Counted from the first letter of the stretch, positions 9,180 through 42,640 are shown. The stretch is DNA of 64,000 nucleotides from Chloroflexota bacterium (GCA_011322445.1 DRMV01000021.1:1629-65628), one strand, 5' to 3'. The notes: generated by a model from the sequence alone, not told the origin. Numbers and translations: made by a program.

Positions 9180-9269
9180 CCTGATTGCGGCGTCAAGCCC
9201 CGCGCCTCAGAGGCGGGGTTGCAGTTCCTGGCGGGTTTCCCTTTCACCCTCACGAAAGGAGGTTCTCTC

Positions 9270-14431: not shown

Positions 14432-14460
14432 GGGGAATGCCTGGGGAAGGCAGCGCCGCC

Positions 14461-16377: not shown

Positions 16378-16602
16378 AGAAAACCTCCTCTTTTTCGGGT
16401 TCAGGCTGCGGGGCCTGTTGTTTTCCTTAGGTGTGCATCTTTAGCATACCAGCACTTTGCAAGAAGTTTATTAACAGGGCGTAGGAAAAAGATTAGAGTG
16501 GAAAAGGCTCAAGGCGAGGGAAAGCGTGGTAGACTTTAAGCGAGTGGCGACACTCATTGCTTGCATCCGATGTTTCCTACCATACCAAGGAGGAAGTGCA
16601 AG

Positions 16603-18142: not shown

Positions 18143-18682
18143 TCAGTTTAGCGGCAGCAGCCAGCCGCGGCTTTCCAGATATTGCAGCACTTTCTGGACG
18201 CTTTCTTCGACGGTTTCCTCTGCCGTGTGGCAGATGACTTCGGGGTTTTCCGGCGGTTCGTAGGGGTCGGAGATGCCGGTGAAGTTTTGAATTTCGCCCG
18301 CAAGGGCTTTTTTGTAAAGGCCTTTCACGTCGCGGCGGATGACCTCTTCCAGCGGGGCTTCTACGAACACTTCGACGAAGTTAGGAATGCGCTCGCGCAC
18401 TTTGTTGCGCGTCTCGCGATAGGGGGAAATCAGGGCGCACACCGCGGCCACGCCGTTGCGGCTCAGCACTTCGGCAACCCACCCCACGCGTAACACGTTG
18501 GTATCCCGATCTTCTTTCGAAAACCCCAGCCCTTTGCTAAGGTTGGTGCGGATGACGTCGCCATCCAGCACTTCCACTTTCATGTTCCGGCGGCGGAGTT
18601 CTTCGGCGACCCGGTGGGCAATGGTGGATTTCCCCGCGCCGGAAAGGCCGGTGAACCAAACGGTAAAGCCTTCATGTTCCAT
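18143..18682 (-). CDS. cysC: adenylyl-sulfate kinase (APS kinase)
   Basis: 179 aa. P-loop GLSGAGKST and a typical APS-kinase sequence throughout. Confidence 0.95.
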
Positions 18683-18713
18683 AGTGTTGTGCTCCTGAAT
18701 TTAAGTTGTGGCG

Positions 18714-19898
18714 TTAGGGTGAAGAGGTGGCGAGCTTTTTGAGCCCTTCAATGAGGACGCGACTGACTTCAGGCCGGGTAAACTCGACGGGCAGCGGTTC
18801 GCCGCGGCGTAGCATTTCCCGCACCTGGGTGCCTGAGAGGTAAACCCAGTCTTCCTTGCCGTGGGGGCAGGTTTTGGCGGTGACCACAGCCTGGCATTTG
18901 CGGCAGTAGAAAGCGTGTTCGAAAAACAGCGGGGTGATGCCGATTTCTTCGGGCAGGAAGTCGTCGAAGATGTGTTGGGCATCGTAAGTGCCGTAATAGT
19001 TGCCCACGCCTGCATGGTCGCGCCCCACGATGAAATGGGTGCAACCGTAGTTCTTGCGGGCCAACGCGTGCATGATGGCTTCTCGAGGCCCGGCGTAGCG
19101 CATGGCTGCGGGGAAGACACCCAGCACAACCCGGTCGCGCGGGTAGTAAGCATCCAGCACGGCGCGGTAACTGGCGATGCGCACGTCGGCGGGGATATCG
19201 TCTTTCTTGGTTTCCCCAACCAGGGGGTGGAGCAACAGACCGTCCACGACTTCCAGCGCAGTCTTTTGGATGTATTCATGCGCTCGGTGGATGGGGTTGC
19301 GCGTTTGGAAACCTACCACTCGCCGCCAGCCGCGCTCGACGAACATGCGCCGCAATTGCGCGGGTGTGTAGCGAAATTCGGGGAATTCCGTGGTGGTGGC
19401 CGTGGGCCAATCGAAGAGCCAGAAGTCGCCGCCCAGCAACACATCCCCCTGGGCGTAAATACGGGCTACGCCAGGATGGGCTTCGTCGGCCGTGCGATAA
19501 ACTTCGCGAGCCTCGTGGTGTTTGTCGTAGGGATAAATTTCGTCGATTACCATGATGGCAAGCGGCCGGTTGCCCTGACAGAGGGCAATTTCTTGTCCTT
19601 CGTGTAAGGTGCTGGCTTGGGCTTCACTCACGGCCAGGGTCACCGGTATCGGCCATACCAGACCGTTGCTTAAGCGCATTTCGTCCACCACGCGGCGATA
19701 GTCTTCAGAGCGCATAAAGCCGGTGAGAGGGCTGTAGGCGCCGACGGCGATCATTTCCAGGTCGGCGAGGTTCATCCGCGACAGGGGAATGCAGGGCAGG
19801 GAGGCGGCTTTGTCACGCGCCGCGGCGCGTAAACTGCCACGCAGCGAGCGGTCGACTAATGCGCCGCCGTGAGGGGGAATCAATTGAGCGTTTTGCAT
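18714..19898 (-). CDS. sat: sulfate adenylyltransferase (ATP sulfurylase)
   Basis: 394 aa. Hallmark [14 protein letters not shown] and VGRDHAG motifs. Confidence 0.95.
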
Positions 19899-19939
19899 TA
19901 TTCACCTCATGCCTTGGAATTGCCAACGTGGCTTGCAGA

Positions 19940-20704
19940 CTATACCACACCCATCAGCAAGCGTGCGCCGGCAAGAAAGATGATGACACCTAAAAGCATC
20001 TGCACGTAGCGGGTAGGTACTCGGGTTACCAGGCGGCTTCCGAGCACCGCACCGGGCAGGGCACCAATGAGCAGTGTGCCTAACAATTGCCAGGCAACCA
20101 TGCCGTGCCAGGCGTAGGTCATGGCCGGGAAGAAGGCTAACACGGCCCCCACCAACACGTTCAGCCCTACTAAATGTGCGGGCGGGAGGGAAAAGAGCAA
20201 TAACATGGTGCTCACAAGAAGCGTGCCGCTTCCGATGGAAGTGGCGCCTACCAGCAGCCCCATCAGAATGCCCAATAACACGTTTTGCCACCACGCGGGC
20301 CAGCGTTCTTGGGCAGGCTCGGCGGGTTTCTGCAGCCATTGGGCTGCCCGAGCTATCACGACACACGCGACCACCATTAAGGTGCCGCCGATTACCCTCG
20401 GGAGGACGCGCTCCACCTGAGGCTGATGGACATGCCCTACGATGAAAGTGGCTGCTAACAACGAGGCGGGGACACTGCCCAGCGAAATGTAGAAGGCAGG
20501 CAGGAGCCATACTGTGCGTTGACGCCGGTGCTGCACCGTGCTTGCGCTTTTGACGACGAAGGAAAATACTAAGTCGGTGCCGATGGCAACGGCTGGGTGT
20601 AAATGGGCCACCAGCAACAAAAAGGGTGTCAGAAGCGCGCCACCACCGATCCCTGTAGGCCCCAAGAGAAAACCAATGACTGCCCCGGCCACAAGGTTAA
20701 CCAC
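19940..20704 (-). CDS. TauE/SafE-family anion (sulfite/sulfate-type) membrane transporter
   Basis: 254 aa. About 8 TM helices and a Gly-rich duplicated architecture typical of TauE/SafE. Confidence 0.8.
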   Translation of the reverse strand: MVNLVAGAVIGFLLGPTGIGGGALLTPFLLLVAHLHPAVAIGTDLVFSFVVKSASTVQHRRQRTVWLLPAFYISLGSVPASLLAATFIVGHVHQPQVERVLPRVIGGTLMVVACVVIARAAQWLQKPAEPAQERWPAWWQNVLLGILMGLLVGATSIGSGTLLVSTMLLLFSLPPAHLVGLNVLVGAVLAFFPAMTYAWHGMVAWQLLGTLLIGALPGAVLGSRLVTRVPTRYVQMLLGVIIFLAGARLLMGVV

Positions 20705-20749
20705 GATGCCTGTCCTTTGCTGCCCGTGTTTACAAGCAACAACACAACC

Positions 20750-20779
20750 ACCCGCCCGTACTGTTTGCGGGCGGGTTTT
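20750..20779. terminator. GC hairpin between the glycosyltransferase and tauE-sat-cysC genes (possible attenuator)
   Basis: ACCCGCCCG-TACTGTTT-GCGGGCGGGT with TTTT on the plus side and TGGTTGTGTTGTTG on the minus side. Confidence 0.4.
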
Positions 20780-20797
20780 GTGAGCTCTTTATCAGGT

Positions 20798-22036
20798 TCA
20801 CAGGCCATACAAACGCCGCAGGGCGTTAGTGTGGCCTGTGGGAGAATGTTCTGTTTGGATGTACGCCAGCGCTGCCTGCCCTTTACGGGCAATTTCGTCA
20901 GGGGTGGTTAGAATTTTTTCCAAGACGCTTGCCAACCCATTGCGGATTGCCTGGCTCATTGCTTCCCGCCCTTCAGCGGTGTGGTACGTGCCGACGCCCA
21001 GGGCATCGCGAGGCACTGGAATGCTCCACCCGCGGTCGGGGGCATTAATATCGGCCAGGGCTTGCACATTCGTGGTGACAACGGGGCAGCCTGCAGCCAT
21101 AAATTCCAGTACCGAGTAGCCGTATGAATCGGCGTAGGTTGGTAGCAGCCCCACGTGTGAGCGTTTCATCCACGCAATCACCTCGTCATGGGGCAATTGG
21201 GGAAAATGCTTGATCCAGTCTTGGTGTGCTGCTAACAGTTTTTGGGCGTGGTGTAATTCTTGAAGCCCGGCGTGGGTGGCAAAGTCGTCAATTCGCAAGG
21301 CACTGACAATGATGAGTTCAAAAGGTTGAGGGCTTGCTTCGCGAAGAGCGATGAAACTTTCCAGCATTTCAACGCCCCCTTTGCGGAAGAAGTCGTGCCC
21401 CACAAACATGAAGCGCAATAAGTTTTCAGGCAGGGGCTTGTCTTCGTAACGCTCGACCGTCAGAGGTTGAGGAGGCTGCAGAACCTCCATTTTGCGCTCA
21501 ATTTGCCCTGCTACTTCGCTCGGCATCCACCGTAAGACCTGGCGCTGCACGCGTTGAGCGTAAGGGGAAAGTGCTACCACCCCTCGGCAGGCAGGGGCGG
21601 CCAGGGCTTGGGCGGCTTTCTCAAAACGGCGGCGTTGGGGCAAGGAAAAGTTCGGCGTCTCGGTGCCTAAGTTGGTCAAGACGGAGCGGAACCGTGGCAC
21701 CAAGGTTTCAAACGTAGTAACCCACGGAATTTTCCCGTAACTGACACCATTGAAGAGGTGCACCAGGTCAACGACGTTGGGATCGCGTTCCTGGAATTGG
21801 TTATTGAGATCGAAATGTAGCGCCCATTGGCGGTGGGTTAATCGGTGTCCCCACCAATTGAGGCGCCGGAGCCAGGGAACTGCCCTACCGAATTTGTCTT
21901 CCACGGGAAGGTACTCAACCTCAGGAACCCGCCCGATAATGTTGTATTGGTAAGAATAGTAGCTCCACCGATGCTTGGGAATCCCGACGCGGAGAGATTT
22001 TGCCCGCGTTTCGGAAGGTTTCTCCTTAGGGCTCAT
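20798..22036 (-). CDS. glycosyltransferase, GT-B fold (family 4/1-like)
   Basis: Track ORF 20798..22108. I prefer the ATG at 22036 (MSPKEK), which overlaps the upstream gene end by 11 nt. C-terminal EX7E-type motif YGYSVLEFMAAGCPVV. Confidence 0.8.
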   Translation of the reverse strand: MSPKEKPSETRAKSLRVGIPKHRWSYYSYQYNIIGRVPEVEYLPVEDKFGRAVPWLRRLNWWGHRLTHRQWALHFDLNNQFQERDPNVVDLVHLFNGVSYGKIPWVTTFETLVPRFRSVLTNLGTETPNFSLPQRRRFEKAAQALAAPACRGVVALSPYAQRVQRQVLRWMPSEVAGQIERKMEVLQPPQPLTVERYEDKPLPENLLRFMFVGHDFFRKGGVEMLESFIALREASPQPFELIIVSALRIDDFATHAGLQELHHAQKLLAAHQDWIKHFPQLPHDEVIAWMKRSHVGLLPTYADSYGYSVLEFMAAGCPVVTTNVQALADINAPDRGWSIPVPRDALGVGTYHTAEGREAMSQAIRNGLASVLEKILTTPDEIARKGQAALAYIQTEHSPTGHTNALRRLYGL

Positions 22037-23036
22037 GGCGGGCTCTCCTGCGACGCCACGGGGAGAGCAGCCGTGCCCGCAGCTGCCTCCATTGTTGCCG
22101 AAGGACATGGTAGCGATAAAGTGTGCTGGATTCCCAATAGCGATCGGGGATGATGAAGGCCCAATGGATGGAAATCTCGATAAAGGCTTCCATCAACTCA
22201 CCATTTTCAAGGTAGTCTTTCATGGGCGCTTCCTGCAGCCACGGCGTTTCCTGCAAAAAGCGTTCCCTCCACGCGAGCGAGGTGCGGTCTGCTTGCTTGG
22301 CGAGCGAGGGAGGCGGCGGCTCCGCTGTGACCCCAAGATAGCGATACACCGATGCCAGGGTTTCGGAGAACTTTTTAGAAAGGTCTTCGTACCATACTTC
22401 TAAGTGGGGAATCTGGTAGCGCCGCAAAAACGAGAGCCATGCATTGTCAATGGCTAAAAGTTTCCATAGGCTATACTCGATCAGCCGGCGGTCATACTGG
22501 GGAGGATGGGCAATGCGAATTTCGCCGCTTTTGGGGCGTAGCCATTCGCCGGTTTGTAAGGCTTTGGAGTATGAAATGGCTTGGGCAAGTTTGTCCCGGC
22601 GCTTGATGTGAATGTAGAGCAAATTGGGGAAGAACACTTCTAAGGTTTCGTGCGGCTCCAGAGAAGGTGCGCCGATACCATCCAGGAAGTTGCGAGCAAT
22701 TTTCAAGAATCGCTGGAATTGCCCCCAATTCAATTTCATGCCCAAGATACCGTTGCGGGTTTGGTACTCCAAGACTTGGACTAAATACTCGTAAGGATCG
22801 TCAAAGTTGATATCCCATCCATACTGGTCGCGAAGGGCGCGCTCTTTGTGAAAGGCTTCGATGGGATTGCCGAACTCGACATCGCCTAACGATTTGCATA
22901 GCAAAGTGCTCCCGCTGCGGGGGGCCATTAAAACCACATAACTCTTGTTGGGCGTGGGGAAATCTTCAAATCGTTGCTTGATGAGGGCGCGAGTTTGTTC
23001 AACTTTTTCTGAACGGATAAGCATTGTTTTCACCAT
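22026..23036 (-). CDS. PAPS-dependent sulfotransferase (Stf0-like)
   Basis: 336 aa. 5'-PSB loop PRSGSTLL and 3'-PB-like KRRDKLAQAISYSKA, as in Stf0/trehalose sulfotransferase-type enzymes. The start is ambiguous (M1 at 23036 or M5 at 23024, both overlapping the upstream gene). Confidence 0.7.
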   Translation of the reverse strand: MVKTMLIRSEKVEQTRALIKQRFEDFPTPNKSYVVLMAPRSGSTLLCKSLGDVEFGNPIEAFHKERALRDQYGWDINFDDPYEYLVQVLEYQTRNGILGMKLNWGQFQRFLKIARNFLDGIGAPSLEPHETLEVFFPNLLYIHIKRRDKLAQAISYSKALQTGEWLRPKSGEIRIAHPPQYDRRLIEYSLWKLLAIDNAWLSFLRRYQIPHLEVWYEDLSKKFSETLASVYRYLGVTAEPPPPSLAKQADRTSLAWRERFLQETPWLQEAPMKDYLENGELMEAFIEISIHWAFIIPDRYWESSTLYRYHVLRQQWRQLRARLLSPWRRRRARHEP

Positions 23037-23991
23037 CTATTCTCAAAATGAGGTTCAATGTTGCCAGGCCGTCTTCCAGGGTAACTTCTGGAAGGCTCTG
23101 GCCCCTTATTATATCTAAAAAATGCTTCATTTCATCCAAAAACATGGTATTGCGTTCCCAACCTGGGGGCAGGGAAGCCACTTCCCAGGCTTGTGTGGCG
23201 CTTTGCCACAATTGTGCCTCCCCTGTGGCGTAAGCCCAGCGGATGGTGCCTTCGGTGCCTAACACTTCCAGCCAATGGGAAGGGGGGCGCTGGTGGTAGT
23301 TCAAATGTACGCTCCCCCAGGCTCCGTTTGCGAAGCGCAGGGCGATTTCGGCGGTATCTTCCACGCCTTGAAGTTTCAGGTTGCTCAGGTGGCCTGTGGC
23401 TGCCCAGGTGACCTCGGTTTCGCCCAAAAGATAGCGGAGGTAATCCAGGGGGTGGCAAAGGGTCCGCACCACGCCCCCGCCCAGGTCGGCGCGGGCGGCA
23501 TAACTCTGGCGGTAGTCTTCCCACGGGTGCCAGTCGGGCAGATATTCACCCCAGTGGGCGCGGACGAATAAGGGGCGCCCAATGGCTTCTTGCTGCAACC
23601 ATTTTCGCACCTGTCGGAGCGTTGGGTGAAAGCGAAACTGGAAGCCCACCAGCACGCGCACGCCGTGTTCCCGCACGGCGCGTTGCAGTGCCTCGGTGCC
23701 TTCCAGCGAAGGGGCAATGGGTTTTTCCAGCAGCAGATGGCAGCCTGCCTGCGCCGCGGGCACCGCGACTTCCATGTGCTGAGCCGTGGGGTTGGCGACG
23801 ATGACCGCATCGGGGCGGTAATGTGCGAGGGCATGCTGCAGGTCGGTTTCCGTAGGGAAGCCGGCCAATTCATCGTCGGGCAGCGTGCTGCGGTGCGTGC
23901 GGTAGAGCACGATGTCCTGTTGGCCTAAAGCGAGCAGGTTGCGCAAATGGCGGCGACCAATGGAGCCTAAACCAGCGATGAGGAAACGCAT
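22999..23991 (-). CDS. Gfo/Idh/MocA-family NAD(P)-dependent sugar oxidoreductase
   Basis: Track ORF 22999..24045 trimmed to ATG 23991 (MRFLIAGLGSIGRRH Rossmann motif). The trimmed start removes the overlap with the upstream gene. Confidence 0.85.
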   Translation of the reverse strand: MRFLIAGLGSIGRRHLRNLLALGQQDIVLYRTHRSTLPDDELAGFPTETDLQHALAHYRPDAVIVANPTAQHMEVAVPAAQAGCHLLLEKPIAPSLEGTEALQRAVREHGVRVLVGFQFRFHPTLRQVRKWLQQEAIGRPLFVRAHWGEYLPDWHPWEDYRQSYAARADLGGGVVRTLCHPLDYLRYLLGETEVTWAATGHLSNLKLQGVEDTAEIALRFANGAWGSVHLNYHQRPPSHWLEVLGTEGTIRWAYATGEAQLWQSATQAWEVASLPPGWERNTMFLDEMKHFLDIIRGQSLPEVTLEDGLATLNLILRIDGENNAYPFRKS

Positions 23992-23996
23992 CACAA

Positions 23997-24980
23997 CTAT
24001 TCCAGTGGGTGCAGAATGTAGAAGAGGCGGTTGTAAAGCGCCCATAACAGTCGCCCCATGCCCGGCACACGAAGCAGCCAGTGGCGCGATGAGGCCTGGA
24101 AGCGTTTCGCAGGCGCTATGCCAAGGGCGCGGATGTCTTCAGCGATGTCGGGGGAAATGACGTTGCCGATATGGCGGACATAGCGTTCTACCGTAGCGAG
24201 GCGCAGGTAGCCCAGGCGATCGATAGCGGTATCCAGTTCGCGCATTTGCCCCATTAACTGCCCGCTCCAGGTTTTAGGCAGCACCTCTAACATGAGCGCT
24301 TTGGGGGCGAGGAACTGGAAATGACTTGCTCCTCCAATGGCCTCTGTGTCGCCCATGCGGAAAACCCAGTCAAGGTGGTCGGCTGTGGCTGTGAGGTGTT
24401 CTTGAGGGTCGCGTCCGGTGCTTCGCGCCCAATCGGCTTCCCATTCGTCGGGAATGCGGCGTTCTCGGCGCACTTTAAGCCCGGGCGGAGGGTGGGCGGC
24501 TATGGTTTCCAGAGCGTGAGAGGCATACGTGCTGGCGTCACGTACGGGAACGCCGCTTACCATCCCTGCTTTGGGGAAAGTGTCCAGCAAGCGGAGTTGG
24601 GCTTCCAGCCAGCCGTCGTAAAAGAGAATGTCGTCGTCGCTGTAAGCGATGAATTCGCCAGGAGCCGCGGGAAAAGCCACTTGGAAAGCCCCAATTTTGC
24701 CGAGATTGCGGCGCGAGAGCAACAAATAGTCAATGCTGCCATTGCGGTGCATTTCCAGCAGGTAATCTTGCACGGGTTGGCAACTGGCGTTATCGAAAAC
24801 GAGGAGGTCGAAAGGCTCGCTGGTGCGTTGTAGGCTGGTGAGTGTGGCTTTGAGGATATCCAGCCGCTGGCGGAAGTAACCATCTAACGAAGGAATGTAG
24901 GTAATAACGATGGCGGTAACGCGGGCAGGGCGGTAGGAGGATGTTTTGCCGCGAGCAGGGTTGATGCCGATGCGTGCCAC
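23997..24980 (-). CDS. glycosyltransferase family 2 (GT-A fold)
   Basis: 327 aa. N-terminal VTAIVITY, DNAS and YSDDD (DxD) motifs. Confidence 0.8.
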   Translation of the reverse strand: MARIGINPARGKTSSYRPARVTAIVITYIPSLDGYFRQRLDILKATLTSLQRTSEPFDLLVFDNASCQPVQDYLLEMHRNGSIDYLLLSRRNLGKIGAFQVAFPAAPGEFIAYSDDDILFYDGWLEAQLRLLDTFPKAGMVSGVPVRDASTYASHALETIAAHPPPGLKVRRERRIPDEWEADWARSTGRDPQEHLTATADHLDWVFRMGDTEAIGGASHFQFLAPKALMLEVLPKTWSGQLMGQMRELDTAIDRLGYLRLATVERYVRHIGNVISPDIAEDIRALGIAPAKRFQASSRHWLLRVPGMGRLLWALYNRLFYILHPLE

Positions 24981-24996
24981 TGAATTTCTCCGGGGC

Positions 24997-26313
24997 TTAC
25001 AAGAGGAAGATGTTGTCGAACTCGGCGCGGAAGGGGGCGGTGACGTTGCGCGTATCCAGGACTTGTGGGGCGTGTTGTGCTACGAAGCGGTAGTCTATGC
25101 CCTTGTGGGGAGTAATGATGACCGCGAGATCCACGGCTTGTAAAGTCTCGGCCGTCAAAGGCACGTTTTCCACCGTTTGCCCGTTTGCCACGAGGTGGGG
25201 CACAAAGGGATCATGGTAAACGACGTCAACGCCGCTTTCTTGCAAAAGGCGGATGATCTCTAAGGCAGGGGATTCTCGCAGGTCGCCCACGTTGGGTTTG
25301 TATGCCACGCCGAGGATGAGGATGCGAGAGCGGGAAGGGGCTTTTCCGACGGCGTTCAAGCGCCGCCAGATTTTAGCGTGAACAAAGGGCGGCATTTGGC
25401 GGTTGATCTCGCCCGCGGTGCGGATGAAACGCGTGGGGAAGTTGTATTCGCGGGCTTTCCATTCCAAGTAGTGGGGGTCAATGGGCACGCAATGTCCTCC
25501 AACCCCGGGGCCGGGGTAAAAGGGCATGATGCCGAAAGGCTTTGTAAAGGCCGCGTCTAACACTTCCCAAAAGTTGATGCCCATGCGATCGGCCAGGAGG
25601 AGAAATTCGTTGACTAACCCTATGTTGACGGCGCGAAAAGTGTTTTCAAAAATTTTCGTCATTTCGGCCACCCGCGCCGATTGGACGGGTACCACGGTTT
25701 CGACGACCTGGCTGTAAAAAGCCGTGGCCACCTCGGTGGAGTGGGGGCCGACACCCCCCACCACTTTCGGCGTATTGTGGGTATGCCACTTTGGGTTGCC
25801 AGGGTCCACGCGTTCCGGCGAGTGAGCAAGGAAAAAGTCTCGCTCAACGACAAGCCCACTTTGTTCCAGAATAGGCAGCATGACTTCGTCGGTCGTACCA
25901 GGGTAGGTGGTGGATTCCAGGCTAATGAGTTGGCCTAGCCGCAAGTGGGCGGCTATGCCCTCGGTGGCGCGGCGAATGTAGGTGAGGTCGGGCGTAAGGC
26001 GGGTGTCTAAGGGGGTGGGCACAGCGATGACGATAACGTCCAGTTCGCCGATGCGTTCATAATTGTCGGTTGCATCCAACAAACCTGTGGAAAGCGCCGA
26101 GCGCAGGTCTGCGGCGGGGATGTCTTCGATATAACTTTCGCCTTCCAGCACGGCTTTGACTCGTTGGGGGTTGAGGTCAATTCCTTGGGTAGCAAAGCCT
26201 GCCTTGACGGTTTCCAGGGCAAAAGGTAAACCGACGTAACCTAACCCAATCACGCCAACTTTGGCTTTTCGGCGAGCGATTTTTTCGGCAAGGAGGTGCT
26301 TCGGCGTTTCCAT
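24997..26313 (-). CDS. nucleotide-sugar 6-dehydrogenase (UDP-GlcNAc/UDP-ManNAc dehydrogenase type)
   Basis: 438 aa. NAD motif VGVIGLGYVGLP and catalytic-Cys context GVGGHCVPIDP. Confidence 0.9.
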   Translation of the reverse strand: METPKHLLAEKIARRKAKVGVIGLGYVGLPFALETVKAGFATQGIDLNPQRVKAVLEGESYIEDIPAADLRSALSTGLLDATDNYERIGELDVIVIAVPTPLDTRLTPDLTYIRRATEGIAAHLRLGQLISLESTTYPGTTDEVMLPILEQSGLVVERDFFLAHSPERVDPGNPKWHTHNTPKVVGGVGPHSTEVATAFYSQVVETVVPVQSARVAEMTKIFENTFRAVNIGLVNEFLLLADRMGINFWEVLDAAFTKPFGIMPFYPGPGVGGHCVPIDPHYLEWKAREYNFPTRFIRTAGEINRQMPPFVHAKIWRRLNAVGKAPSRSRILILGVAYKPNVGDLRESPALEIIRLLQESGVDVVYHDPFVPHLVANGQTVENVPLTAETLQAVDLAVIITPHKGIDYRFVAQHAPQVLDTRNVTAPFRAEFDNIFLL

Positions 26314-26325
26314 GGTGGTTTGTCC

Positions 26326-27231
26326 TTATGTAGCGCGAAAATGGGTCTGGAGCCGGCGACTTAGCCTGAGGAGAGCAAGGCCGCCTCGCGAAGTGGGGTA
26401 GCCTCGGCGTTGCAGGCCTAACTCAATGCTGCGCAAGAGGGCGATGTGGGGCCGGTGCAAGCGCCGCACTTTACCGTCGCTCAGGGTGTAATTGGCTTCT
26501 AAAATGCTAAACATGTGGCTGCGCCCACCAGCAAGCCGGATGTTTTCCTGCGATTCTTCCAACCGGTAATGAGGCTGGCCGCCGGGGAGATGGGCGTAAT
26601 CGTGTCGTTGATGGATGACGGTGGTGGCCTGTGTCGCGTCGATGACTTTCCACCCTTGTTTGCGGGCGTGGTAAATCATCCAGTTATCCCAGCCCGCGCG
26701 GCCCACGGCAAAGGGCGGCATATCGGCGTAGGCCGCTTTGGGGAAGACAAAGTAATCGATGCCGAAAGATGAGTGCAGCCTGCCGTTTGCTCGTGCAAAA
26801 GTGCGCAGCCGTTGGGCCCACCCTTCGGTGGTTTCAAGGGGTGTGGTGATGTCTACATCCCAGCGGCGGCCTACCATCAGGAAGTCATCCGGCGTCTGTG
26901 CGAGGATGGCTTCTACCGCTTCCAGAAAATCGGGTAGCAGGATGATGTCGGCATTGACGTAGCACAGGTAAGGTGCTGAAGCGGCGTCCCGCGCGAGGGC
27001 GAAAATGGATGAAACCAACGGCGTGCCTTGCTCGTTGCGAGCCACTTCGGGCAAATGGCGCACGCCCATTTCGGCGGCTACTTCGGCCAGGCCATTTTCT
27101 GCGCCAAGGAGAAGCACTTCGACCTTTTCGCCCAGCGCCAGCCATGAACGGATGGCGTTGCGTTGAATCAGGGCGATGTGCTCGCGATCGAAGGGCTTGG
27201 GAGCGGAAAAAAGGGTCAGCAAAGGCTTCAT
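26326..27231 (-). CDS. putative glycosyltransferase (GT-A-like), uncharacterised family
   Basis: Track ORF 26326..27570 trimmed to ATG 27231 (ATGA overlap with the upstream stop at 27228). N-terminal TLFSAPKPF...IQRNAIRSW and a YVNADIIL acidic motif. Assigned by context and weak pattern only. Confidence 0.5.
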   Translation of the reverse strand: MKPLLTLFSAPKPFDREHIALIQRNAIRSWLALGEKVEVLLLGAENGLAEVAAEMGVRHLPEVARNEQGTPLVSSIFALARDAASAPYLCYVNADIILLPDFLEAVEAILAQTPDDFLMVGRRWDVDITTPLETTEGWAQRLRTFARANGRLHSSFGIDYFVFPKAAYADMPPFAVGRAGWDNWMIYHARKQGWKVIDATQATTVIHQRHDYAHLPGGQPHYRLEESQENIRLAGGRSHMFSILEANYTLSDGKVRRLHRPHIALLRSIELGLQRRGYPTSRGGLALLRLSRRLQTHFRAT

Positions 27232-28823
27232 GGTTTCACCGTAGGGCGGCAATACAACGCCCCGATAGCATCGGTAGCGCAAGGGGTGCCACCATTGTGT
27301 TTCAAGAGCGCCTTCCACCATAAGCGGCTGCGGTCGGCGCCCGGTTGCCACAGCAGCACCACAGCGCCGCCGTGCGCCCGCCATTGTATCAGACGCGGGT
27401 TTTTCGTGGAAGCCTCCTCCCATAACATATAGTAGGGCAGTTCGTTCAGCGCAAAGGCTGGTCGTGCCAGCCAGATAAGCACCCCCGGCCAGTTGTTGGA
27501 GTACAGCGGGGTGTCTGCTGGCAGGGCGGCCACATCGTGCAACACGCCTGCGGTCATGCTTTCCTGCCACGGCCTTGCGGTATAGCCTTCCCCAAAATAG
27601 CGCATGGTGAGGAGGGCCTGATGAGCCGCAGAGGCGGGAGATTTCATCCAGCCCAGCAGCACAAGGATGGCAACAGCCGCAGCAATTTGTTGCAGCCGTG
27701 CCCGCTCAGGCCACTTTGCCTGCAACCACGCCGCCAGCGCGGCCAGGCCGCTCACCAGCCACATGGTGAATGCGGGGGTGTACATGCGGAAATCCAGCGC
27801 AGGGGGCGGCGCGATGAAGACGAACATGAAAGCCAGAAAGGGAAACCACGCGAAGGCATCCAGCGCGGCCAGCAAACTCAGCGTGGCTAGAGGGGAAGCC
27901 GACGCTTTGCGCCAGCGCGCGACTGCCACACCCCAGCCCGCGGCCACGGCGATTACGGCAACCCAGAAGGCGACAATAGCCGCCAGCGGCGGATGGAGCC
28001 AGTAGGGGAAAATTGCAGCCAGAAAGGTGTTGCCGGTAAGGTGCAGGAACTGGCCGAAAGCGGGCAGCCATTGGTGGGGGGCTGTCCATCCTCCCGGCGA
28101 CTGCCCTGCCACGCGGCCGTAGACCATCCACGCGCCGAAAGGCAGTAGAAAGATTGCCCCGCTGATAATCGCCCGCCGCAGCCGTGCGCGCCAGGGCCGT
28201 GAAGGCCAAAAGAGCAGCGGCACGAGCACCAGCACAATGCCCGCGTGCAGGCCGGCATAGCGCACGCTCACGCTGAGGGCGGCGATCATGACCGCGGCCC
28301 ACCACCAGGGACTGCTATCTCGCTGCACGCTGCGCCACATGCTATAAAGCCATGCTGCCAGCATGACCAGAAACGGCGGTTCCGACATCAGGCTGGTAAA
28401 CGCTCGCGCCACCGGCAGGCTGGTTGCCAACATCACCATGCCCAACAGTGCCAGGAGCAGGCGGTCGCTGGCTTCGTAAAGCCACCAGCCGACGATGAAC
28501 AAGAACAGCGCCAGGGAAAGCACATCCAGCAGGCGCCCGGCGGCAATCCAGTCGTTGTGGGTGAGGCGCATCGCCTCCGCGATCAGGGTTGGATAGCCCG
28601 GTGGATAGTGCGTGAGCAAGATGACACTGCCGTCGCTTTGGAGGGAAAGCACGCCTTGCCCGGCAAGAATGTGCCGGGCGGCGTCGACGTAGGCCGCGGA
28701 GTCGGTATAGGCCCACGGCCCCCAGGGAGCCAGGGCGTAAGCGTATACCGCGGCGGCAAGGACGGCGGCGGCAAAGATGAGGAACATCGGCAAGCGTTTG
28801 TCGGAGAAAATGAATCGTTGCAT
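27228..28823 (-). CDS. polytopic membrane glycosyltransferase-like protein (GT-C/ArnT-PMT-like)
   Basis: Track ORF 27228..29036 trimmed to ATG 28823 (MQRFIFSDKRLPMFLIF). More than 10 TM helices. Early loop YTDSAAYVDAARHI resembles the acidic first loop of GT-C enzymes. Confidence 0.6.
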   Translation of the reverse strand: MQRFIFSDKRLPMFLIFAAAVLAAAVYAYALAPWGPWAYTDSAAYVDAARHILAGQGVLSLQSDGSVILLTHYPPGYPTLIAEAMRLTHNDWIAAGRLLDVLSLALFLFIVGWWLYEASDRLLLALLGMVMLATSLPVARAFTSLMSEPPFLVMLAAWLYSMWRSVQRDSSPWWWAAVMIAALSVSVRYAGLHAGIVLVLVPLLFWPSRPWRARLRRAIISGAIFLLPFGAWMVYGRVAGQSPGGWTAPHQWLPAFGQFLHLTGNTFLAAIFPYWLHPPLAAIVAFWVAVIAVAAGWGVAVARWRKASASPLATLSLLAALDAFAWFPFLAFMFVFIAPPPALDFRMYTPAFTMWLVSGLAALAAWLQAKWPERARLQQIAAAVAILVLLGWMKSPASAAHQALLTMRYFGEGYTARPWQESMTAGVLHDVAALPADTPLYSNNWPGVLIWLARPAFALNELPYYMLWEEASTKNPRLIQWRAHGGAVVLLWQPGADRSRLWWKALLKHNGGTPCATDAIGALYCRPTVKP

Positions 28824-28829
28824 GGAAGG

Positions 28830-28875
28830 AGTCGGGGAGTCAGATAGTCGGATAGTCGGGGAGTCAGATAGTCGG
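28830..28875 (-). repeat. 22-nt direct repeat (24-nt period) spanning a stop codon and an intercistronic spacer
   Basis: AGTCGGGGAGTCAGATAGTCGG occurs at 28830-28851 and at 28854-28875. The second copy contains the TGA stop (28864-28866) and the last codons of the upstream GT gene. Confidence 0.85.
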
Positions 28876-29976
28876 GGCGAGGCGGCGGTAAAGGGCCAGC
28901 AGGCGCTGGAAGTTCTGCGGCCAGTCGGCGCGGGCTTCGGCGCGGGCTCGGGCTGCCCTTCCGTGGGCTTGCAACGCGGCGGGCGGGGTGTGGGCGGCTT
29001 CCAGCAGGGCTTCGGCGAGGGCGTTGACGCTGCCATCGGAGAACAGCCAGCCTTCCTGCCCGTGGATAACCCATTCGCGGTTGGAAGGAATGTCGGAAAC
29101 CAGCACCGGCAGGCCGCTGGCGAGGGCTTCCATCAGGGAAACCGATGAGCCGTCGCTGTGGGATGCGCTGAGGTAGAGGTCGGCAGCGCGGTAATAGCGC
29201 GGCAGGTCGCGCTGGGAAACCTGCCCAAAGAAGTGCACGCGGTCGAGCAGGCGGGCTTCCTGAAAAATGCGGTGCAGCAGCGGTGCCAGAGACCCGCCGC
29301 CGAGGAGCATCAGCCGCAGGCGGGGTTCCTGCCGCGCGGCCTGCACGAAAGCCCGCGCCATCACATCCACGCCGTAAACCGGCTCCCACGAGCGGTTGTG
29401 GAGCACCACGAAGGCGTCTTCCCAGCCTAAGCGGGCGCGCAGGCCGTCGTCGGGGCCGGGCGAAAAATGTTGTAAATCCACGCCCCAGGGGAAGACCGTG
29501 ACGCGCTCGCGGGGGAAGCCGAAATCGGCGGCGCGGCGGGCGACGGTTTCGCAATCGGCCACTAAGGCGTCGCTGCGGCGGAGCACGAAGCGGGTCAGGC
29601 GGCGGTAAAAGCCGCTACGGTCGGCGTCGCGCAGCAGGTCGGAACCCCACGACATGCTCACGAGGGGGTGAAAGCCCAGCAGCGCGGGGAAGGCAGCCAC
29701 GGTCTGAATTGGCCCGGCGTGGATGAGGTCAGGTTTGACCTGGCGCACCACCCGCCGGAAATCGGCAAACAGCGCCAGGAAATCGCGCCAGCGAAAGGGC
29801 TTTTGCCCGCCCTGCCAGCGGATTTGCCGCACCGGGGGCGGGAGGGGACGGTCTTCGGTCTGCCGCCTGCCGCGTTGCAAGCGCAGGTAAGCCACCTCGT
29901 GCCCGCTTTCGGCGAGGGCGGTCAGAAAGCGGTGGTCGTGGGGGGTGTAGTCGAGGGAGAAGTAGAAGAGGCGCAT
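28864..29976 (-). CDS. glycosyltransferase family 4 (GT-B fold)
   Basis: 370 aa. Motif DGSSVSLMEALASGLPVLVSD (EX7E region). Confidence 0.85.
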   Translation of the reverse strand: MRLFYFSLDYTPHDHRFLTALAESGHEVAYLRLQRGRRQTEDRPLPPPVRQIRWQGGQKPFRWRDFLALFADFRRVVRQVKPDLIHAGPIQTVAAFPALLGFHPLVSMSWGSDLLRDADRSGFYRRLTRFVLRRSDALVADCETVARRAADFGFPRERVTVFPWGVDLQHFSPGPDDGLRARLGWEDAFVVLHNRSWEPVYGVDVMARAFVQAARQEPRLRLMLLGGGSLAPLLHRIFQEARLLDRVHFFGQVSQRDLPRYYRAADLYLSASHSDGSSVSLMEALASGLPVLVSDIPSNREWVIHGQEGWLFSDGSVNALAEALLEAAHTPPAALQAHGRAARARAEARADWPQNFQRLLALYRRLAPTI

Positions 29977-30000
29977 GGGAGGGTTAGGGATGGCCTGAGG

Positions 30001-30145
30001 GGATGCTCGGATGCCCTGTGAAGGGATGCCCGGTGGGGGGATGCCTTGATGCCCCGTGAAGGGATGCTCAGTGAGAGGGTGCCCGGATGCCCAATAAAAA
30101 AGTGCCCGGATGCCCGGTGGGGGGATGCCCGGATGCCCGGTGGGC
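30001..30145. repeat. array of about ten GGATGCCC-type octamer words
   Basis: Plus-strand GGATGCTC GGATGCCC ..GGATGCCC ..GGATGCCT TGATGCCC ..GGATGCTC ..GGTGCCC GGATGCCC ..GTGCCC GGATGCCC ..GGATGCCC GGATGCCC. It fills the spacer between the GT4 start and the stop of the four-helix-bundle gene. Confidence 0.9.
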
Positions 30146-30532
30146 CTAACGGCGGTGGCTTTTTGCCGAGCGGCGGCGGACGGAAGCCAGCAGCCCGCCG
30201 CTTAAGGCTTTGGTCTCTTCCGCAAGGCGGTAGAGCAATTCGAAATTTTCTCGGGAGAGATACCCCGCGTCCAGCGCCACATAAAGCAACGATTGTACCT
30301 CCGCGGCAGAAGCGCGGGCATAGGCCAAAAAGCGGGAAAAATCGCCGTCCGTGCCGCTGTCAAATCCTTCGGCAATATTGCTCATAGCCGAAACGGCAGC
30401 CCGTTGGATCTGGTCGCGCAGGCCAAAGTCGCGGGCAAAGGGTTCCTGTCGTGTGGCGGCGTATACGCTGCTGACCAACTTGCGGGCGCTTTGCCATGCC
30501 CGCAAATCTTCAAACCGCTTCACCAGCGCCAT
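30146..30532 (-). CDS. four-helix-bundle protein (23S rRNA intervening-sequence protein / Avd-like family)
   Basis: 128 aa. FEDLRAWQSARKL...NIAEGF...ARASAAEVQSLL pattern, characteristic of the TIGR02436/PF05635-type family. Confidence 0.85.
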   Translation of the reverse strand: MALVKRFEDLRAWQSARKLVSSVYAATRQEPFARDFGLRDQIQRAAVSAMSNIAEGFDSGTDGDFSRFLAYARASAAEVQSLLYVALDAGYLSRENFELLYRLAEETKALSGGLLASVRRRSAKSHRR

Positions 30533-30548
30533 CGCTCACCTCTCCACC

Positions 30549-30617
30549 GGGCATCAAGGCACCAGGCATCAGGACACAGGGCATCGGGGCACACAGCCTC
30601 AGGGCATCCCCACATCC
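30549..30617. repeat. array of GGGCATC words (reverse complement of the 30001-30145 words)
   Basis: Plus-strand GGGCATCA..GGCATCA..GGGCATCG..GGGCATCC..CACATCC. It overlaps the last codons of the NeuB-family gene (GGG ATG CCC TGA on the minus strand). Confidence 0.85.
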
Positions 30618-31672
30618 ACCCACCGCACCGCATCTCCCTTCGGAATGTCGCGCAGGGCTTTGGTGCCCACCACCGCGTCCATTTCCCACGACTGAATTGC
30701 GCCGATGACGTTCGGGCGGAGCACATCCAGCATGTCGCGGGTGATGGTTTCCCCGGCTTTGATGTCGCGGGCGGCGCGCGCGCAGCGGCGCTGGACGAGG
30801 TAGGTTTCCTTTTCGTTGCCCGCCACGAATTTGTCGCCGGAGCCGAGGGCGCGTTCCAGTTTGCGGGTTTCTTCCACCATCAGCGCCCATTCGTCGGGGT
30901 TGGTGGCAAACTTGTGGTCGGGGCCTTCGCGGTCGTTGTCGTCGGTGAAGTGGCGTTCCACCACGCGAGCGCCCAACGCCACCGCACCCAAAATCACCGC
31001 CAGCCCGCGGGTGTGGTCGGAAATGCCCAGCACGGCATTGGGCCACATCTGGCGGTAGGTTTTCAGCACGTTGAGGTGAATGTGGTCGAAGTTTTCTTCG
31101 CTGGCAGTGTAGTTGGTATTGCACTGCATCAGCACGATCTGGTCGTTGACTTCCTGCACCATGCGCATTGCCCGGGCCACGTCGCTGATATCCGAAGCGC
31201 CGGTAGCCATCATGATGGGCTTGCCCTTCTTCGCCATGTAAACCAGCAGTTCCGGCCACGACATCAGCCCCGAACCCGCTTTGTAAACCGGCACGTAGGG
31301 TTCGATGTGGTCCACCGAGTCGAAATCGTAGGGCGAGGAGAAGAAGTCAATGCCGACCTTGTCGCATTCCTCTTTGAGGTAGGGCGTCCAGTCGCGGGGC
31401 AGGGAAGCCTCTTCGTAGACCTGATAAACCGACTTCTTCCAGGAAGCCTGGTGGGAGAGCTGCTTCCCGAAGGCGCGGAAGCCGTAATCGGAGACGATTT
31501 TGGGGGCGAGGAAGTGCTGGAATTTGGCCGCGTCCGCGCCGGCTTCCTTGGCGAGGCGGATGAGCAGTTTAGCGCGTTCTAAGGAGCCATCGTGGTTGGC
31601 GGCGATGTCGGCAATGAAATAGGTGGGATGGCCGTCGCCAATCAGGCGGTTGCCAATGCGGATTTCGGGCAT
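30599..31672 (-). CDS. NeuB-family nonulosonic/sialic-acid-type synthase with C-terminal SAF domain
   Basis: Track ORF 30599..31777 trimmed to ATG 31672 (GGAGGTG upstream). Motif FIADIAANHDGSLERAKLLIRLAKEAGADAAKFQ. Confidence 0.85.
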   Translation of the reverse strand: MPEIRIGNRLIGDGHPTYFIADIAANHDGSLERAKLLIRLAKEAGADAAKFQHFLAPKIVSDYGFRAFGKQLSHQASWKKSVYQVYEEASLPRDWTPYLKEECDKVGIDFFSSPYDFDSVDHIEPYVPVYKAGSGLMSWPELLVYMAKKGKPIMMATGASDISDVARAMRMVQEVNDQIVLMQCNTNYTASEENFDHIHLNVLKTYRQMWPNAVLGISDHTRGLAVILGAVALGARVVERHFTDDNDREGPDHKFATNPDEWALMVEETRKLERALGSGDKFVAGNEKETYLVQRRCARAARDIKAGETITRDMLDVLRPNVIGAIQSWEMDAVVGTKALRDIPKGDAVRWVDVGMP

Positions 31673-31712: not shown

Positions 31713-32540
31713 TTATGTGCCCCAGTCGCGCAGGTAGAGGAAGTCGTAACCGATGGTGCGGTTGGAAAGTTTGGCAATCGGGGGCATCAGGCGCTTGAAG
31801 TGGTTGCGGCGCATCCGCCGGACGACGGCTTGCACAAAGGCTTCATCGAAGCCCTCTTCGATGCATTCCTGGGGGGTGTAGCGCCGGTCCACCAGCAGGT
31901 AGAGCAGCCGGTCGGCTTCCCGATACGAAAAGCCGAGTTCCTGCTCGTCGGTTTGGCCTGCCCACAGGTCGGCCGTAGGGGCTTTTTTGATGATGACTTC
32001 CGGCACACCGACGGCTTCGGAAAGTTGCCACACCTGCGTTTTGTAAAGGTCGCCGATGGGGTTGATGGCATAGGCCGAATCGCCGTAAAGGGTGGAATAG
32101 CCCAGCAGGATTTCGGTTTTGTTGCTGGTGCCCACGACCAGGCCCCCAAAGGCCGCCGACTGGTCGTAGAGCACCATCATGCGGGCGCGGGCCATCATAT
32201 TGCCGCGGCGGCGCTTATCCATTTCGGGGAAGCGGGCGAAATAAGGCTCCACCATCTCGGTGATGTCGACCGTGAGCGAGCGCACGCCCGTGGCGTCGAT
32301 GACCATTTGGGCGTGTTCCAGCGATTCGCGGGATGAGGTGCGGTAAGGCATCCGCACCGCGAGAACGTTTTCGGGGCCAAGGGCTTCGGCGGCCAGGAAG
32401 CAGGAAAGCGCCGAATCCACGCCGCCGGAAAGCCCCACCACGGCGCGTTTCAGGCCAATGCGGCCGATTTCGCTGCGGATGAAGCCGGTGAGGATGCGGC
32501 GGGCTAAATCGGTGTTGATGGCGAGGTCAATGGGGGGCAT
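31713..32540 (-). CDS. nadE: NAD+ synthetase, single-domain (NadE)
   Basis: 275 aa. PP-loop [10 protein letters not shown] and a typical NadE C-terminal region. Confidence 0.92.
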
Positions 32541-32552
32541 GAAAGCACCTCG

Positions 32553-33035
32553 TTAGCGGTAGCGTTTGACGGCTTCCCGGAAGCGTTTTTGGGTGGCAGT
32601 GAGTTTACGGCGGCGGACAACCTGGGAGCCGACCAGTTGATCGTGGAGGGTGGTGTGCTGCCGTACCAGGTAGAAGAGCATGATCAGCCACCCGAACATC
32701 ACGACGAAGAGGGTAAAGAGTTTTGCGAGTTCCCGCAGAATGGCGCTCCGCACCGTCAGGCGACGCGCTCGCGGGCCGATGACTTCCAGCCCGAACAGCC
32801 ATTTGCCCGGGGTGGTTTGCCAGAGCGCCGTGGGCACGCCCAGCAACACCGCGGTCAGCAAAAAGAAAAGGGCAATGGCGGCCAGTCCCCACAATTCTGC
32901 GACGAGACCGCTTTTCAGAGAAAGCCGAGCGAGCAGCGCCGAAGGCCACGCGATGCCAAAGGCGGCTGCCGTCATTGCCCAGAAGAGATCGACTACTGCA
33001 GCGAAGAGCCGTCTTGCCACCATGTTCCCCTCCAA
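32553..33035 (-). CDS. RDD-family membrane protein
   Basis: 160 aa (or 156 aa from M5). Three TM helices with Arg/Asp spacing typical of the RDD domain. Confidence 0.6.
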   Translation of the reverse strand: MEGNMVARRLFAAVVDLFWAMTAAAFGIAWPSALLARLSLKSGLVAELWGLAAIALFFLLTAVLLGVPTALWQTTPGKWLFGLEVIGPRARRLTVRSAILRELAKLFTLFVVMFGWLIMLFYLVRQHTTLHDQLVGSQVVRRRKLTATQKRFREAVKRYR

Positions 33036-33038
33036 TGA

Positions 33039-33905: not shown

Positions 33906-33932
33906 GAGCACCTCGCAGTCAAGGGTGGTTAA

Positions 33933-33941
33933 ATCATACCA
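33933..33941 (-). promoter_or_regulatory. extended -10 promoter (TGGTATGAT) at the head of the long minus-strand gene string
   Basis: Minus-strand TGGTATGAT about 28 nt upstream of ATG 33905. Confidence 0.4.
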
Positions 33942-34017
33942 CTGGTATTGCGCCTGGTTCACGCGATTTCCTCTGGCCTGCTCGTTGCTGGGAGACCGGT
34001 TCACGCCAACGAAACCC

Positions 34018-34046
34018 TTGCCAACCTTTTTTGCCTCTGCTATAAT
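34018..34046 (+). promoter_or_regulatory. sigma-70 promoter of tRNA-Val
   Basis: TTGCCA (34018-34023), 17-nt spacer, TGcTATAAT (-10 at 34041-34046). The tRNA starts at 34057. Confidence 0.7.
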
Positions 34047-34056
34047 CAAGGCGCTT

Positions 34057-42575: not shown

Positions 42576-42640
42576 GGTGCGTTTCCTTCAAAACCCTTTG
42601 GAGCGGCCACTTGCGCCTTGTGAGCGAGGCCGCCCGAAAC

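Follow-up and report, generated by a model that had tools for sequence, protein, structure and literature searches.

Bacterial sulfated glycans have been documented in few lineages, and the sulfotransferases that make them are hard to recognise. In the rhizobial NodPQ-NodH and LpsS/KpsS systems, a dedicated sulfurylase and an adenosine 5'-phosphosulfate (APS) kinase feed a carbohydrate sulfotransferase that acts on a surface or secreted glycoconjugate. Dedicated synthesis of 3'-phosphoadenosine 5'-phosphosulfate (PAPS) is also paired with one sulfotransferase in the RaxPQ-RaxST system of Xanthomonas, where the acceptor is a peptide tyrosine and the setting is not a glycan locus. The synechan (xss) cluster of Synechocystis PCC 6803 reportedly keeps its sulfotransferases within a polysaccharide assembly cluster; it is said to be of the Wzx/Wzy type, to carry no PAPS-synthesis genes and to use sulfotransferases of other families. 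PAPS genes and sulfotransferases inside a polysaccharide cluster have been called a hallmark of sulfated polysaccharide synthesis (PMC11641403). Such a combination is described here from a stretch of 64,000 nucleotides (nt), the whole of which is called the window, from a Chloroflexota bacterium (GCA_011322445.1 DRMV01000021.1:1629-65628). The locus in question appears to join a dedicated PAPS supply to one sulfotransferase, as in rhizobia and Xanthomonas, and places that enzyme among glycan assembly genes.

The locus is a run of 13 genes, all on the minus strand, that extends from a gene for a NeuB-family synthase to cysC (positions 18143-31672; Table 1). The original prediction for this region was that dedicated PAPS synthesis feeds a sulfotransferase in a glycan-assembly locus, and this core claim is supported by family profiles, by the predicted fold of the sulfotransferase and by the linkage of the same genes in related loci. 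Read from its genes, the locus probably builds a cell-surface glycan to which sulfate is added at the cytoplasmic face of the membrane. For the sulfotransferase protein there is an identical NCBI entry, ENJ54_03940, from a metagenome-assembled genome named "Chloroflexi bacterium," and the identical sequence is also found on contigs from hydrothermal-vent metagenomes. Genes were called from a listing of open reading frames (ORFs) combined with Pfam and NCBIfam matches and with public calls on identical contigs.

The long-form sulfotransferase

The sulfotransferase was checked by profile and by predicted structure, and both agree with the identity and fold first proposed for it; the refuting outcome named at the outset, a product with no match to sulfotransferase profiles, did not occur. 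Its match to PF09037 scores 113.9 bits against a cutoff of 22 and covers profile positions 1-242 of 244, and a profile built from its homologues matches the solved Stf0 structure (1TEX) with E = 1.4e-41. The AlphaFold2 (AF2) model has a predicted local distance difference test score (pLDDT) of 92.7. In Foldseek, its top match in the Protein Data Bank (PDB) is again 1TEX (E = 1.8e-9; template modelling score, target, 0.71), and the second-ranked match is the tyrosylprotein sulfotransferase TPST2 (3e-4). The two motifs named at the outset, PRSGSTLL (residues 39-46) and RRDKLAQAIS (residues 146-155), are present and fall on conserved columns of the family; the first is the PAPS 5'-phosphosulfate loop and the second is the 3'-phosphate loop. 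Within them, R40, G42, S43, R146, Q152, A153, and S155 are invariant among 52 homologues, and S41 is nearly so. A glutamate that aligns with E60 of Stf0, presumably the catalytic base, is invariant across the long forms described below.

The label "Stf0-like" holds at the level of the family, given the PF09037 match and the fold, but the enzyme is not an orthologue of the trehalose 2-sulfotransferase. The equivalog model for the latter (NF047724) requires 400 bits and gives 93.7, with an alignment limited to residues 91-264. The protein belongs instead to a long form of 324-336 amino acids (aa), which gains one helix at the N terminus and a pair of helices at the C terminus (281-303 and 305-333 in the model). 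Its C-terminal tail is amphipathic and strongly basic, and the net charge ranges from +4 to +11 across the six members that were looked at. No transmembrane (TM) segment is predicted in the sulfotransferase. A tail of this kind on a protein with no TM segment suggests that the acceptor is most likely membrane-proximal, and makes a free sugar such as trehalose less likely.

A HMMER pass over 1.84 billion representatives returned 6,853 members of the family, about a dozen of them full-length long forms. Scans with a long-form profile found one locus in genome contigs and four in metagenome contigs, numbers that allow limited statistics. Judged from these searches, the long-form clade is rare. 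Among the homologues, the Stf0 domain is also found fused to other domains. For example, P0021 and P0032 (about 575 aa) are GT2-Stf0 fusions (GT, glycosyltransferase), and in P0050 (558 aa) it is joined to a CysD-like PF01507 domain. Two further proteins, P0335 (1332 aa) and P0337 (749 aa), each have three stretches that match the long-form profile.

Sulfate activation and uptake

The sulfuryl donor would be supplied by the genes at the other end of the run. CysC scores 207.6 bits with PF01583 against a cutoff of 21.1, its translation holds the P-loop GLSGAGKST, and it shares 52-55% identity with the kinase portion of the fused sat-cysC genes of three related loci (L005, L008, and L011; related loci are numbered with an L throughout). 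Sat scores above the curated cutoffs of both NF003166 (566 vs 387 bits) and TIGR00339 (448 vs 323 bits). By family, Sat and CysC are thus a PAPS synthesis pair, in which Sat yields APS and CysC yields PAPS. The TauE-family permease encoded beside them may be a sulfate importer; a member of this family has been found experimentally to confer sulfate uptake (PMC11535334). Among the sampled loci, TauE is found in the window and in L009 only.

The original prediction held that neither a PAPS/APS reductase nor a sulfite reductase is present, and within the 64-kilobase (kb) window this is borne out by Pfam scans and a signature search. None of the scanned ORFs in the 64 kb matched a Pfam family for cysH, APS reductase, or sir, and the ECG[LI]H signature was not found in any of the six frames over the same length.

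Related loci

Related loci were sampled by means of the long-form Stf0 sulfotransferase, the GT-A-like protein, which served as a marker, or the Gfo/Idh/MocA oxidoreductase (Gfo); the sample is small, and its members were mostly reached through genes of this locus. Long-form homologues, 42-44% identical to the sulfotransferase of the window, lie beside sat or sat-cysC in L005, L008, L013, L014, and L015, and in every long-form locus long enough to judge, sat/cysC adjoins the sulfotransferase. Gene order and strand differ among the long-form loci, with the exception of L009, where the order from GT4 to cysC is that of the window but the dehydrogenase gene is lacking. Adjacency that is kept despite differing order and strand points to selection on proximity and not to inherited synteny, which argues for the proposed connection between the two activities. 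The linkage appears to be specific to the long-form clade, since a short-form Stf0 sampled for comparison (P0007) stands alone, having neither PAPS genes nor glycosyltransferases as neighbours.

The long-form loci also share other genes with the window. L005/L006 has a Gfo, a GT2, a GT4, a second sulfotransferase, a methyltransferase, and a short-chain dehydrogenase/reductase (SDR). L008, from a Chloroflexia genome, has four sulfotransferases together with NeuB, a cytidine monophosphate (CMP)-transferase, two PMT-family proteins, Gfo, GT2, and a GT-A-like protein. In L011, L016, and L019, a fused sat-cysC lies mid-cluster beside sulfotransferases of the PF00685/PF13469 families, with Gfo and SDR genes, and the core of GT-A-like, GT2, GT4, and NeuB genes is retained. 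By this comparison, the transferase has undergone non-orthologous replacement in these three loci, while the donor supply is unchanged. In all, sat/cysC adjoins sulfotransferases in nine loci besides the window, and in five of them a fused gene lies mid-cluster.

The conserved core of this Chloroflexota/Anaerolineales locus consists of NeuB with its SAF domain, GT4, a CMP-transferase, the GT-A-like protein, and GT2, with a large membrane protein in some cases. It is often preceded by Wzm/Wzt, methyltransferase, and epimerase genes, and it is followed by a variable region. CTP_transf_3 genes, of the CMP-ulosonate type, are found in L010, L011, L016, L017, L019, and L020. Wzm/Wzt is present in L011 and L017, and Wzt is present in L016; Capsule_synth genes occur in relatives as well. 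Exporter and capsule genes of this sort suggest that the conserved locus makes an exported polymer. Sulfotransferases and PAPS synthesis were found in 7 of the 10 sampled loci of this type, in shuffled gene order and with sat and cysC fused in five, and three of the loci that carry sulfation genes use other sulfotransferase families alone. Judged by this distribution, the glycan locus is widespread in Chloroflexota, and its sulfotransferase or sulfotransferases and PAPS-synthesis genes act like an accessory module for decoration. A strict tie of Gfo to the sulfation cassette was considered and rejected, since L020 has a Gfo with neither a sulfotransferase nor sat-cysC.

Many of the related loci carry a second ulosonic-acid module. 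In L008, L011, L019, and L020, it consists of a NeuB that either lacks SAF or is fused to AP_endonuc_2, plus CTP_transf_3, which may be accompanied by a HAD phosphatase, and an SDR and a Gfo. L020, for example, holds an SDR and a second NeuB/CMP-transferase. A second module of this kind suggests that one glycan contains two distinct ulosonic acids. Of this module, the window retains Gfo only.

Proposed pathway and alternative explanations

From the family assignments and the genomic linkage, we infer an acceptor, a topology, and a product as follows. The TauE-family permease would bring sulfate into the cell, where Sat would convert sulfate and adenosine triphosphate (ATP) to APS and CysC would convert APS to PAPS. 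The long-form Stf0-family enzyme would then use PAPS to place a sulfuryl group on a hydroxyl of a sugar. The likely acceptor is a membrane-proximal glycan, lipid-linked or nascent, assembled by the GT4, GT2, and GT-A-like enzymes encoded nearby, and the Gfo oxidoreductase, the nucleotide-sugar dehydrogenase, and NeuB may supply modified or acidic sugars for it. Export would come next, and any step carried out by the GT-C-like protein would follow export.

Several points weigh against this proposal. The whole interpretation rests on the sequence of a metagenome-assembled genome, and we know of no sulfated product from any Chloroflexota. The window has no homologue of the CMP-ulosonate synthetase (CTP_transf_3) or of the Wzm/Wzt of the relatives, and no initiating phosphoglycosyl transferase or Wzx/Wzy was found among the ORFs scanned. 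The pathway is therefore incomplete in the window, with the CMP-synthetase, the exporter, and the priming genes missing. The epimerase genes of L010, L011, and L008 likewise have no homologue in the window, which also holds no second sulfotransferase. Three of the 10 sampled loci of this type (L010, L017, and L020) have no sulfation genes. Finally, tauE, sat, and cysC lie at the cluster's margin, beyond a strongly structured spacer of 93 nt, and could form a separate transcript, and the sat of the window may be the only one in the cell, in which case it would serve assimilation as well.

One could accordingly consider tauE-sat-cysC as an ordinary assimilatory operon, with its PAPS reductase encoded elsewhere, that is a chance neighbour of the glycan genes or serves both purposes, so that the sulfotransferase uses the general PAPS pool. 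This is unlikely, and it is the alternative that survives best. The position of the trio at the cluster end, beyond the spacer with its two hairpins, is in keeping with it. So are a promoter-like site before sat (19926-19897), the lack of TauE in the more distant loci, and the ties of TauE-family permeases to assimilatory sulfate uptake (PMC11535334). The spacer folds with a minimum free energy of -39.6 kcal/mol (z = -4.5), and the hairpin that had been noted near 20750-20779 is real, being found at 20751-20775. However, no U-tract follows this hairpin, and it was not called by a terminator scan. The two hairpins are not a canonical intrinsic terminator and could possibly be an attenuator or a site of RNA processing. 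The spacer region is 96% identical in L009, which is uninformative about the hairpins because the whole region is about 92-96% identical. Promoter-like sites in the region number 7, which is within the shuffle expectation of 4.1 +/- 2.1, and terminator-like sites are fewer than in shuffles, so no operon boundary can be set from them. Against an ordinary assimilatory operon, sat/cysC adjoins sulfotransferases in the nine other loci, with rearranged order in all but L009 and with a fused gene mid-cluster in five, and no cysH or sir was found in the 64 kb.

Another possibility is that the locus yields no polymer but a sulfoglycolipid or a small molecule that bears sulfate, such as trehalose-2-sulfate or another sulfated disaccharide that serves as a compatible solute, or a lipid head group like that of the mycobacterial sulfolipid-1 (SL-1). 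The sole characterised Stf0 enzyme sulfates free trehalose, and both the family model and the fold match the enzyme of the window. Glycolipid synthases also appear among the weak NCBIfam matches of the GT4 enzymes, and the missing Wzm/Wzt, together with the Wzx/Wzy and priming transferase not found among the ORFs scanned, is in keeping with this reading. Against this stand the low score with the trehalose 2-sulfotransferase model and the lack of any Pfam family for trehalose synthesis, acyltransferases, or polyketide synthases among the ORFs scanned. In addition, the orthologous loci hold genes of the sort that accompany polymers, namely ATP-binding cassette exporters of the Wzm/Wzt type, Capsule_synth, and ulosonic-acid genes, and in some of them other sulfotransferase families take the place of Stf0. 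A small molecule or sulfolipid is thus improbable, somewhat more so than an assimilatory operon. That the sulfotransferase-like protein has lost its activity or draws on a donor other than PAPS, leaving the glycan of the locus unsulfated, is very improbable, given that both PAPS loops and the aligned glutamate are invariant in the long forms, that the window and L009 proteins are 95.5% identical, on par with their neighbours, and that adjacency to PAPS genes is retained down to 42-44% identity.

The rest of the gene cluster

The run from NeuB to cysC had been described as sixteen tightly packed, co-directional genes. The genes are co-directional, but they number 13, and the gaps between them hold no additional minus-strand ORF; a count of 16 is reached only if the upstream genes for NadE, an RDD protein, and a CN-hydrolase (31713-34049) are included. 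The packing is indeed tight, with intergenic gaps of -38 to +40 nt and three exceptions, namely the 93 nt before tauE and the 169 and 66 nt on either side of the 23S_rRNA_IVP (IVP) gene. The sulfotransferase gene overlaps both of its neighbours, by 11 nt with the adjoining GT4 gene (20798-22036) and by 38 nt with the Gfo gene, and overlaps of this kind suggest translational coupling.

Table 1. Genes and other features of the putative glycan sulfation locus, with positions counted from the first nucleotide of the window
Feature	Positions	Strand	Basis
cysC, APS kinase, 179 aa	18143-18682	-	PF01583, E = 1.2e-61
sat, homomeric-type ATP sulfurylase, 394 aa	18714-19898	-	PF01747, 5e-99; PUA_2, 2e-55
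TauE/SafE (TSUP) permease	19940-20704	-	PF01925, 3.8e-41; 8 predicted TM segments
Structured 93-nt spacer with two adjacent hairpins	20705-20797	-	between GT4 gene and tauE
GT4-type (GT-B) glycosyltransferase, 412 aa	20798-22036	-	PF00534, 2e-12
Long-form Stf0-family PAPS-dependent sulfotransferase, 336 aa	22026-23036	-	PF09037, E = 1.1e-32
Gfo/Idh/MocA NAD(P) oxidoreductase, 330 aa	22999-23991	-	PF01408 and PF22725
GT2 glycosyltransferase, 327 aa	23997-24980	-	PF00535, 1e-12
UDP-HexNAc-type nucleotide-sugar 6-dehydrogenase, 438 aa	24997-26313	-	TIGR03026, 392 bits vs cutoff of 190
GT-A-fold glycosyltransferase-like protein, 301 aa	26326-27231	-	no Pfam family; predicted structure
GT-C-like polytopic membrane protein, 531 aa	27228-28823	-	8 TM segments; weak PMT match
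Core GT4 (GT-B) glycosyltransferase, 370 aa	28864-29976	-	PF00534, 4e-28; PF13439, 1e-16
23S_rRNA_IVP four-helix-bundle protein, 128 aa	30146-30532	-	PF05635, 4e-32
NeuB-family ulosonic-acid synthase with SAF domain, 357 aa	30599-31672	-	PF03102, 1e-68, 231.8 bits
GT2 glycosyltransferase (358 aa) and two PMT_2 GT-C enzymes, possibly associated	40058-44170	-	PF00535, 8e-27; PF13231, 5e-13 and 7e-12
UDP-HexNAc, uridine diphosphate-N-acetylhexosamine; NAD(P), nicotinamide adenine dinucleotide (phosphate).

The glycosyltransferases were originally counted as two of the GT-B fold, one GT2, one GT-A-like, and one GT-C-like. The two GT-B enzymes, both GT4, and the GT2 stand as described, while the GT-A-like assignment comes from a predicted structure and the GT-C-like assignment is weaker. 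The GT4 beside the sulfotransferase gene has an orthologue in L005 (44% identity), and the orthologues of the core GT4 in L009, L010, and L011 are 84%, 76%, and 53% identical. The GT2 gene adjoins the gene for the GT-A-like protein in L005, L008, L009, L010, L011, L016, L017, L019, and L020. The GT-A-like protein has more than 6,293 homologues, and its AF2 model (pLDDT 92.4) matches the GT-A enzymes 6p61 (5e-9) and SpsA (1.5e-7) in Foldseek, as well as heparosan and chondroitin synthases. For the 531-aa membrane protein, the match to PF02366 (PMT) scores 16.9 bits against a cutoff of 22.7, a sub-threshold E of 0.005, and a PDB sequence search returned no match. It is 26% identical over 443 aa (E = 8e-17) to a protein of L008 that does pass PF02366, so that to call it GT-C-like is reasonable but not proven.

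The Gfo oxidoreductase and the dehydrogenase had been proposed as a WbpA/WbpB-like pair, which the comparison of loci does not support: the dehydrogenase is not found in L009 or the other loci, whereas Gfo is kept, and Gfo prefers inositol dehydrogenase models. Its NCBIfam ranking is led by IolG (inositol dehydrogenase; 134 bits against a cutoff of 355), and the model for the UDP-GlcNAc (UDP-N-acetylglucosamine) 3-dehydrogenase, at 85 bits, is far below cutoff. The top PDB match of Gfo is 3q2k, which we take to be WlbA (6.7e-23, 84.7 bits), near levoglucosan dehydrogenase and anhydrofructose reductase. Orthologues in L005, L008, and L011 are 53-63% identical. By family, it is likely to be a sugar-modifying enzyme. 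The families of the WbpE aminotransferase and the WbpD acetyltransferase are absent from the Pfam matches of the 13 genes. The best PDB matches of the dehydrogenase are the UDP-ManNAc (UDP-N-acetylmannosamine) dehydrogenase (4r16, 4e-67) and Cap5O, and its gene is, from its distribution among the loci, a lineage-specific insertion. When 24982-26420 is compared with L009, the dehydrogenase gene is what is missing there. Protein identity between the window and L009 is 93-97% from GT2 through cysC and 84-89% for the GT-A-like, GT-C-like, and GT4 proteins, and this step coincides with the insertion point of the dehydrogenase gene.

NeuB falls under the equivalog cutoffs both for NeuB (258 vs 400 bits) and for PseI (233 vs 340 bits). 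It is 70% identical to the NeuB of L011, whose gene lies directly upstream of the GT4 orthologue. Given the IVP gene, the larger gaps, and the rearrangement in L009, NeuB was considered as an accidental neighbour. This was rejected: the adjacency of NeuB and GT4, with or without IVP between them, recurs in L011, L016, L017, L019, and L020, and NeuB therefore belongs to the locus. The IVP gene itself is probably a passenger. The arrangement NeuB-IVP-GT4 is shared by the window and L020 (IVP at 3173-3544 of L020, where Gfo is 65% identical), so the insertion of IVP between NeuB and GT4 is either old or recurrent.

The GT2 and PMT_2 genes in the last row of Table 1 lie apart from the run in the window. 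In L009, they are found about 2.5 kb from GT4, with only TGT and FG-GAP genes between. The segment 29980-46360 of the window is inverted in L009, which brings these genes near the cluster there.

Other features of the window

Directly upstream of NeuB, and packed against it, are the minus-strand genes (31713-34049) for the CN-hydrolase (336 aa), the RDD membrane protein, and NadE (275 aa), which look like a split glutamine-dependent NAD synthetase with the RDD gene between its parts. A tRNA gene on the plus strand (34057-34130) bounds the co-directional run. When the whole window was searched against Rfam at gathering thresholds, two tRNAs were the only matches, and the spacer before tauE had none.

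Farther from the locus, a plus-strand ORF of 700 aa (14437-16539) matches PF10712, "NAD-specific glutamate dehydrogenase" (3.7e-174), which we take to be a known spurious antisense family. It lies antisense to dnaK (HSP70; 14461-16377, minus strand), which is called on identical contigs, and the AT skew of the stretch 14437-16539 is -0.29. At 9219-10376 on the plus strand, a baeRF (bacterial eRF1-like) protein, identified on the identical contig L007, is encoded beside an HtrA-type protease and DnaJ. A long co-directional run on the minus strand (46447-55891) encodes mostly proteins with no Pfam match; it includes a PF13941 "MutL"-type ATPase (48231-49991), an 804-aa zinc-ribbon protein, and a DUF6754 protein. 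Near the end of the window is a large serine recombinase (58819-60624) with Resolvase, Recombinase, and Zn-ribbon domains. After it, the G+C content falls from about 0.65 to 0.49-0.51, and a 530-aa ORF (61757-63349) has no Pfam match. The stretch 58819-64000 may be an integrated mobile element.

Significance and comparison with known systems

In the literature searched, nothing links Anaerolineae or Chloroflexi to the production of sulfated glycans. In one study of a microbial mat, the Chloroflexi genomes examined were reported to lack sulfotransferases (PMC9723792). [quoted passage not shown] A wider proposal, which is possible and at present rather doubtful, is that many Chloroflexota, and especially Anaerolineae, bear an exported glycan that is both sialic-acid-like (ulosonic) and sulfated and is made by a conserved locus, with sulfotransferases and a dedicated PAPS synthase as a swappable sulfation cassette and the long-form Stf0 as a new membrane-associated class of glycan sulfotransferases. 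If true, this would point to the organisms and genes behind the sialylated, sulfated glycoconjugates of anaerobic granular sludge and mats (PMC10483923). The GT-A-like marker, GT2, and NeuB, together with a sulfotransferase and sat-cysC, provide a signature that can be searched for in Chloroflexota. Also, TauE, Sat, CysC, and the 336-aa sulfotransferase make a compact enzyme set that could be put to the test or put to use in sulfating glycans.

Among described systems, the capsule clusters of the marine Gammaproteobacteria Vibrio sp. KMM 8419 and Cobetia marina KMM 1449 likewise hold PAPS genes and sulfotransferases among glycosyltransferase and nucleotide-sugar genes. In these, the PAPS genes are extra copies of the heterodimeric CysDN type with CysC, export is by a Kps-type ATP-binding cassette (ABC) exporter, and the structure of the product has been solved. 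Unlike them, the window has a homomeric Sat, a TauE-family permease, and an Stf0-family transferase, no exporter was found in it, its host belongs to the Chloroflexota, and its system is known from genes alone. The rhizobial system differs in its NodPQ of CysDN/CysC type, in a NodH from the PF13469 family, and in its acceptors, which are a lipo-chitooligosaccharide, lipopolysaccharide, or the K-antigen of a diderm. The mycobacterial Stf0 of sulfolipid-1 synthesis has PF09037, the fold, and the arginine-containing PAPS loop in common with the enzyme of the window (PMC11625862, where NodH and KpsS are also mentioned). It is an enzyme of about 260 aa that sulfates O-2 of free trehalose, the reaction with which a pathway to an acylated lipid begins. 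To our knowledge, neither PAPS genes nor glycosyltransferases lie beside it. The enzyme of the window, in comparison, is longer by one N-terminal and two C-terminal helices in its model and sits among glycosyltransferases. PAPS genes beside a sulfotransferase in a glycan cluster were thus already known; what is new is the phylum and the apparently rare long-form clade of Stf0, and the value of the locus is taxonomic and enzymological and not conceptual.

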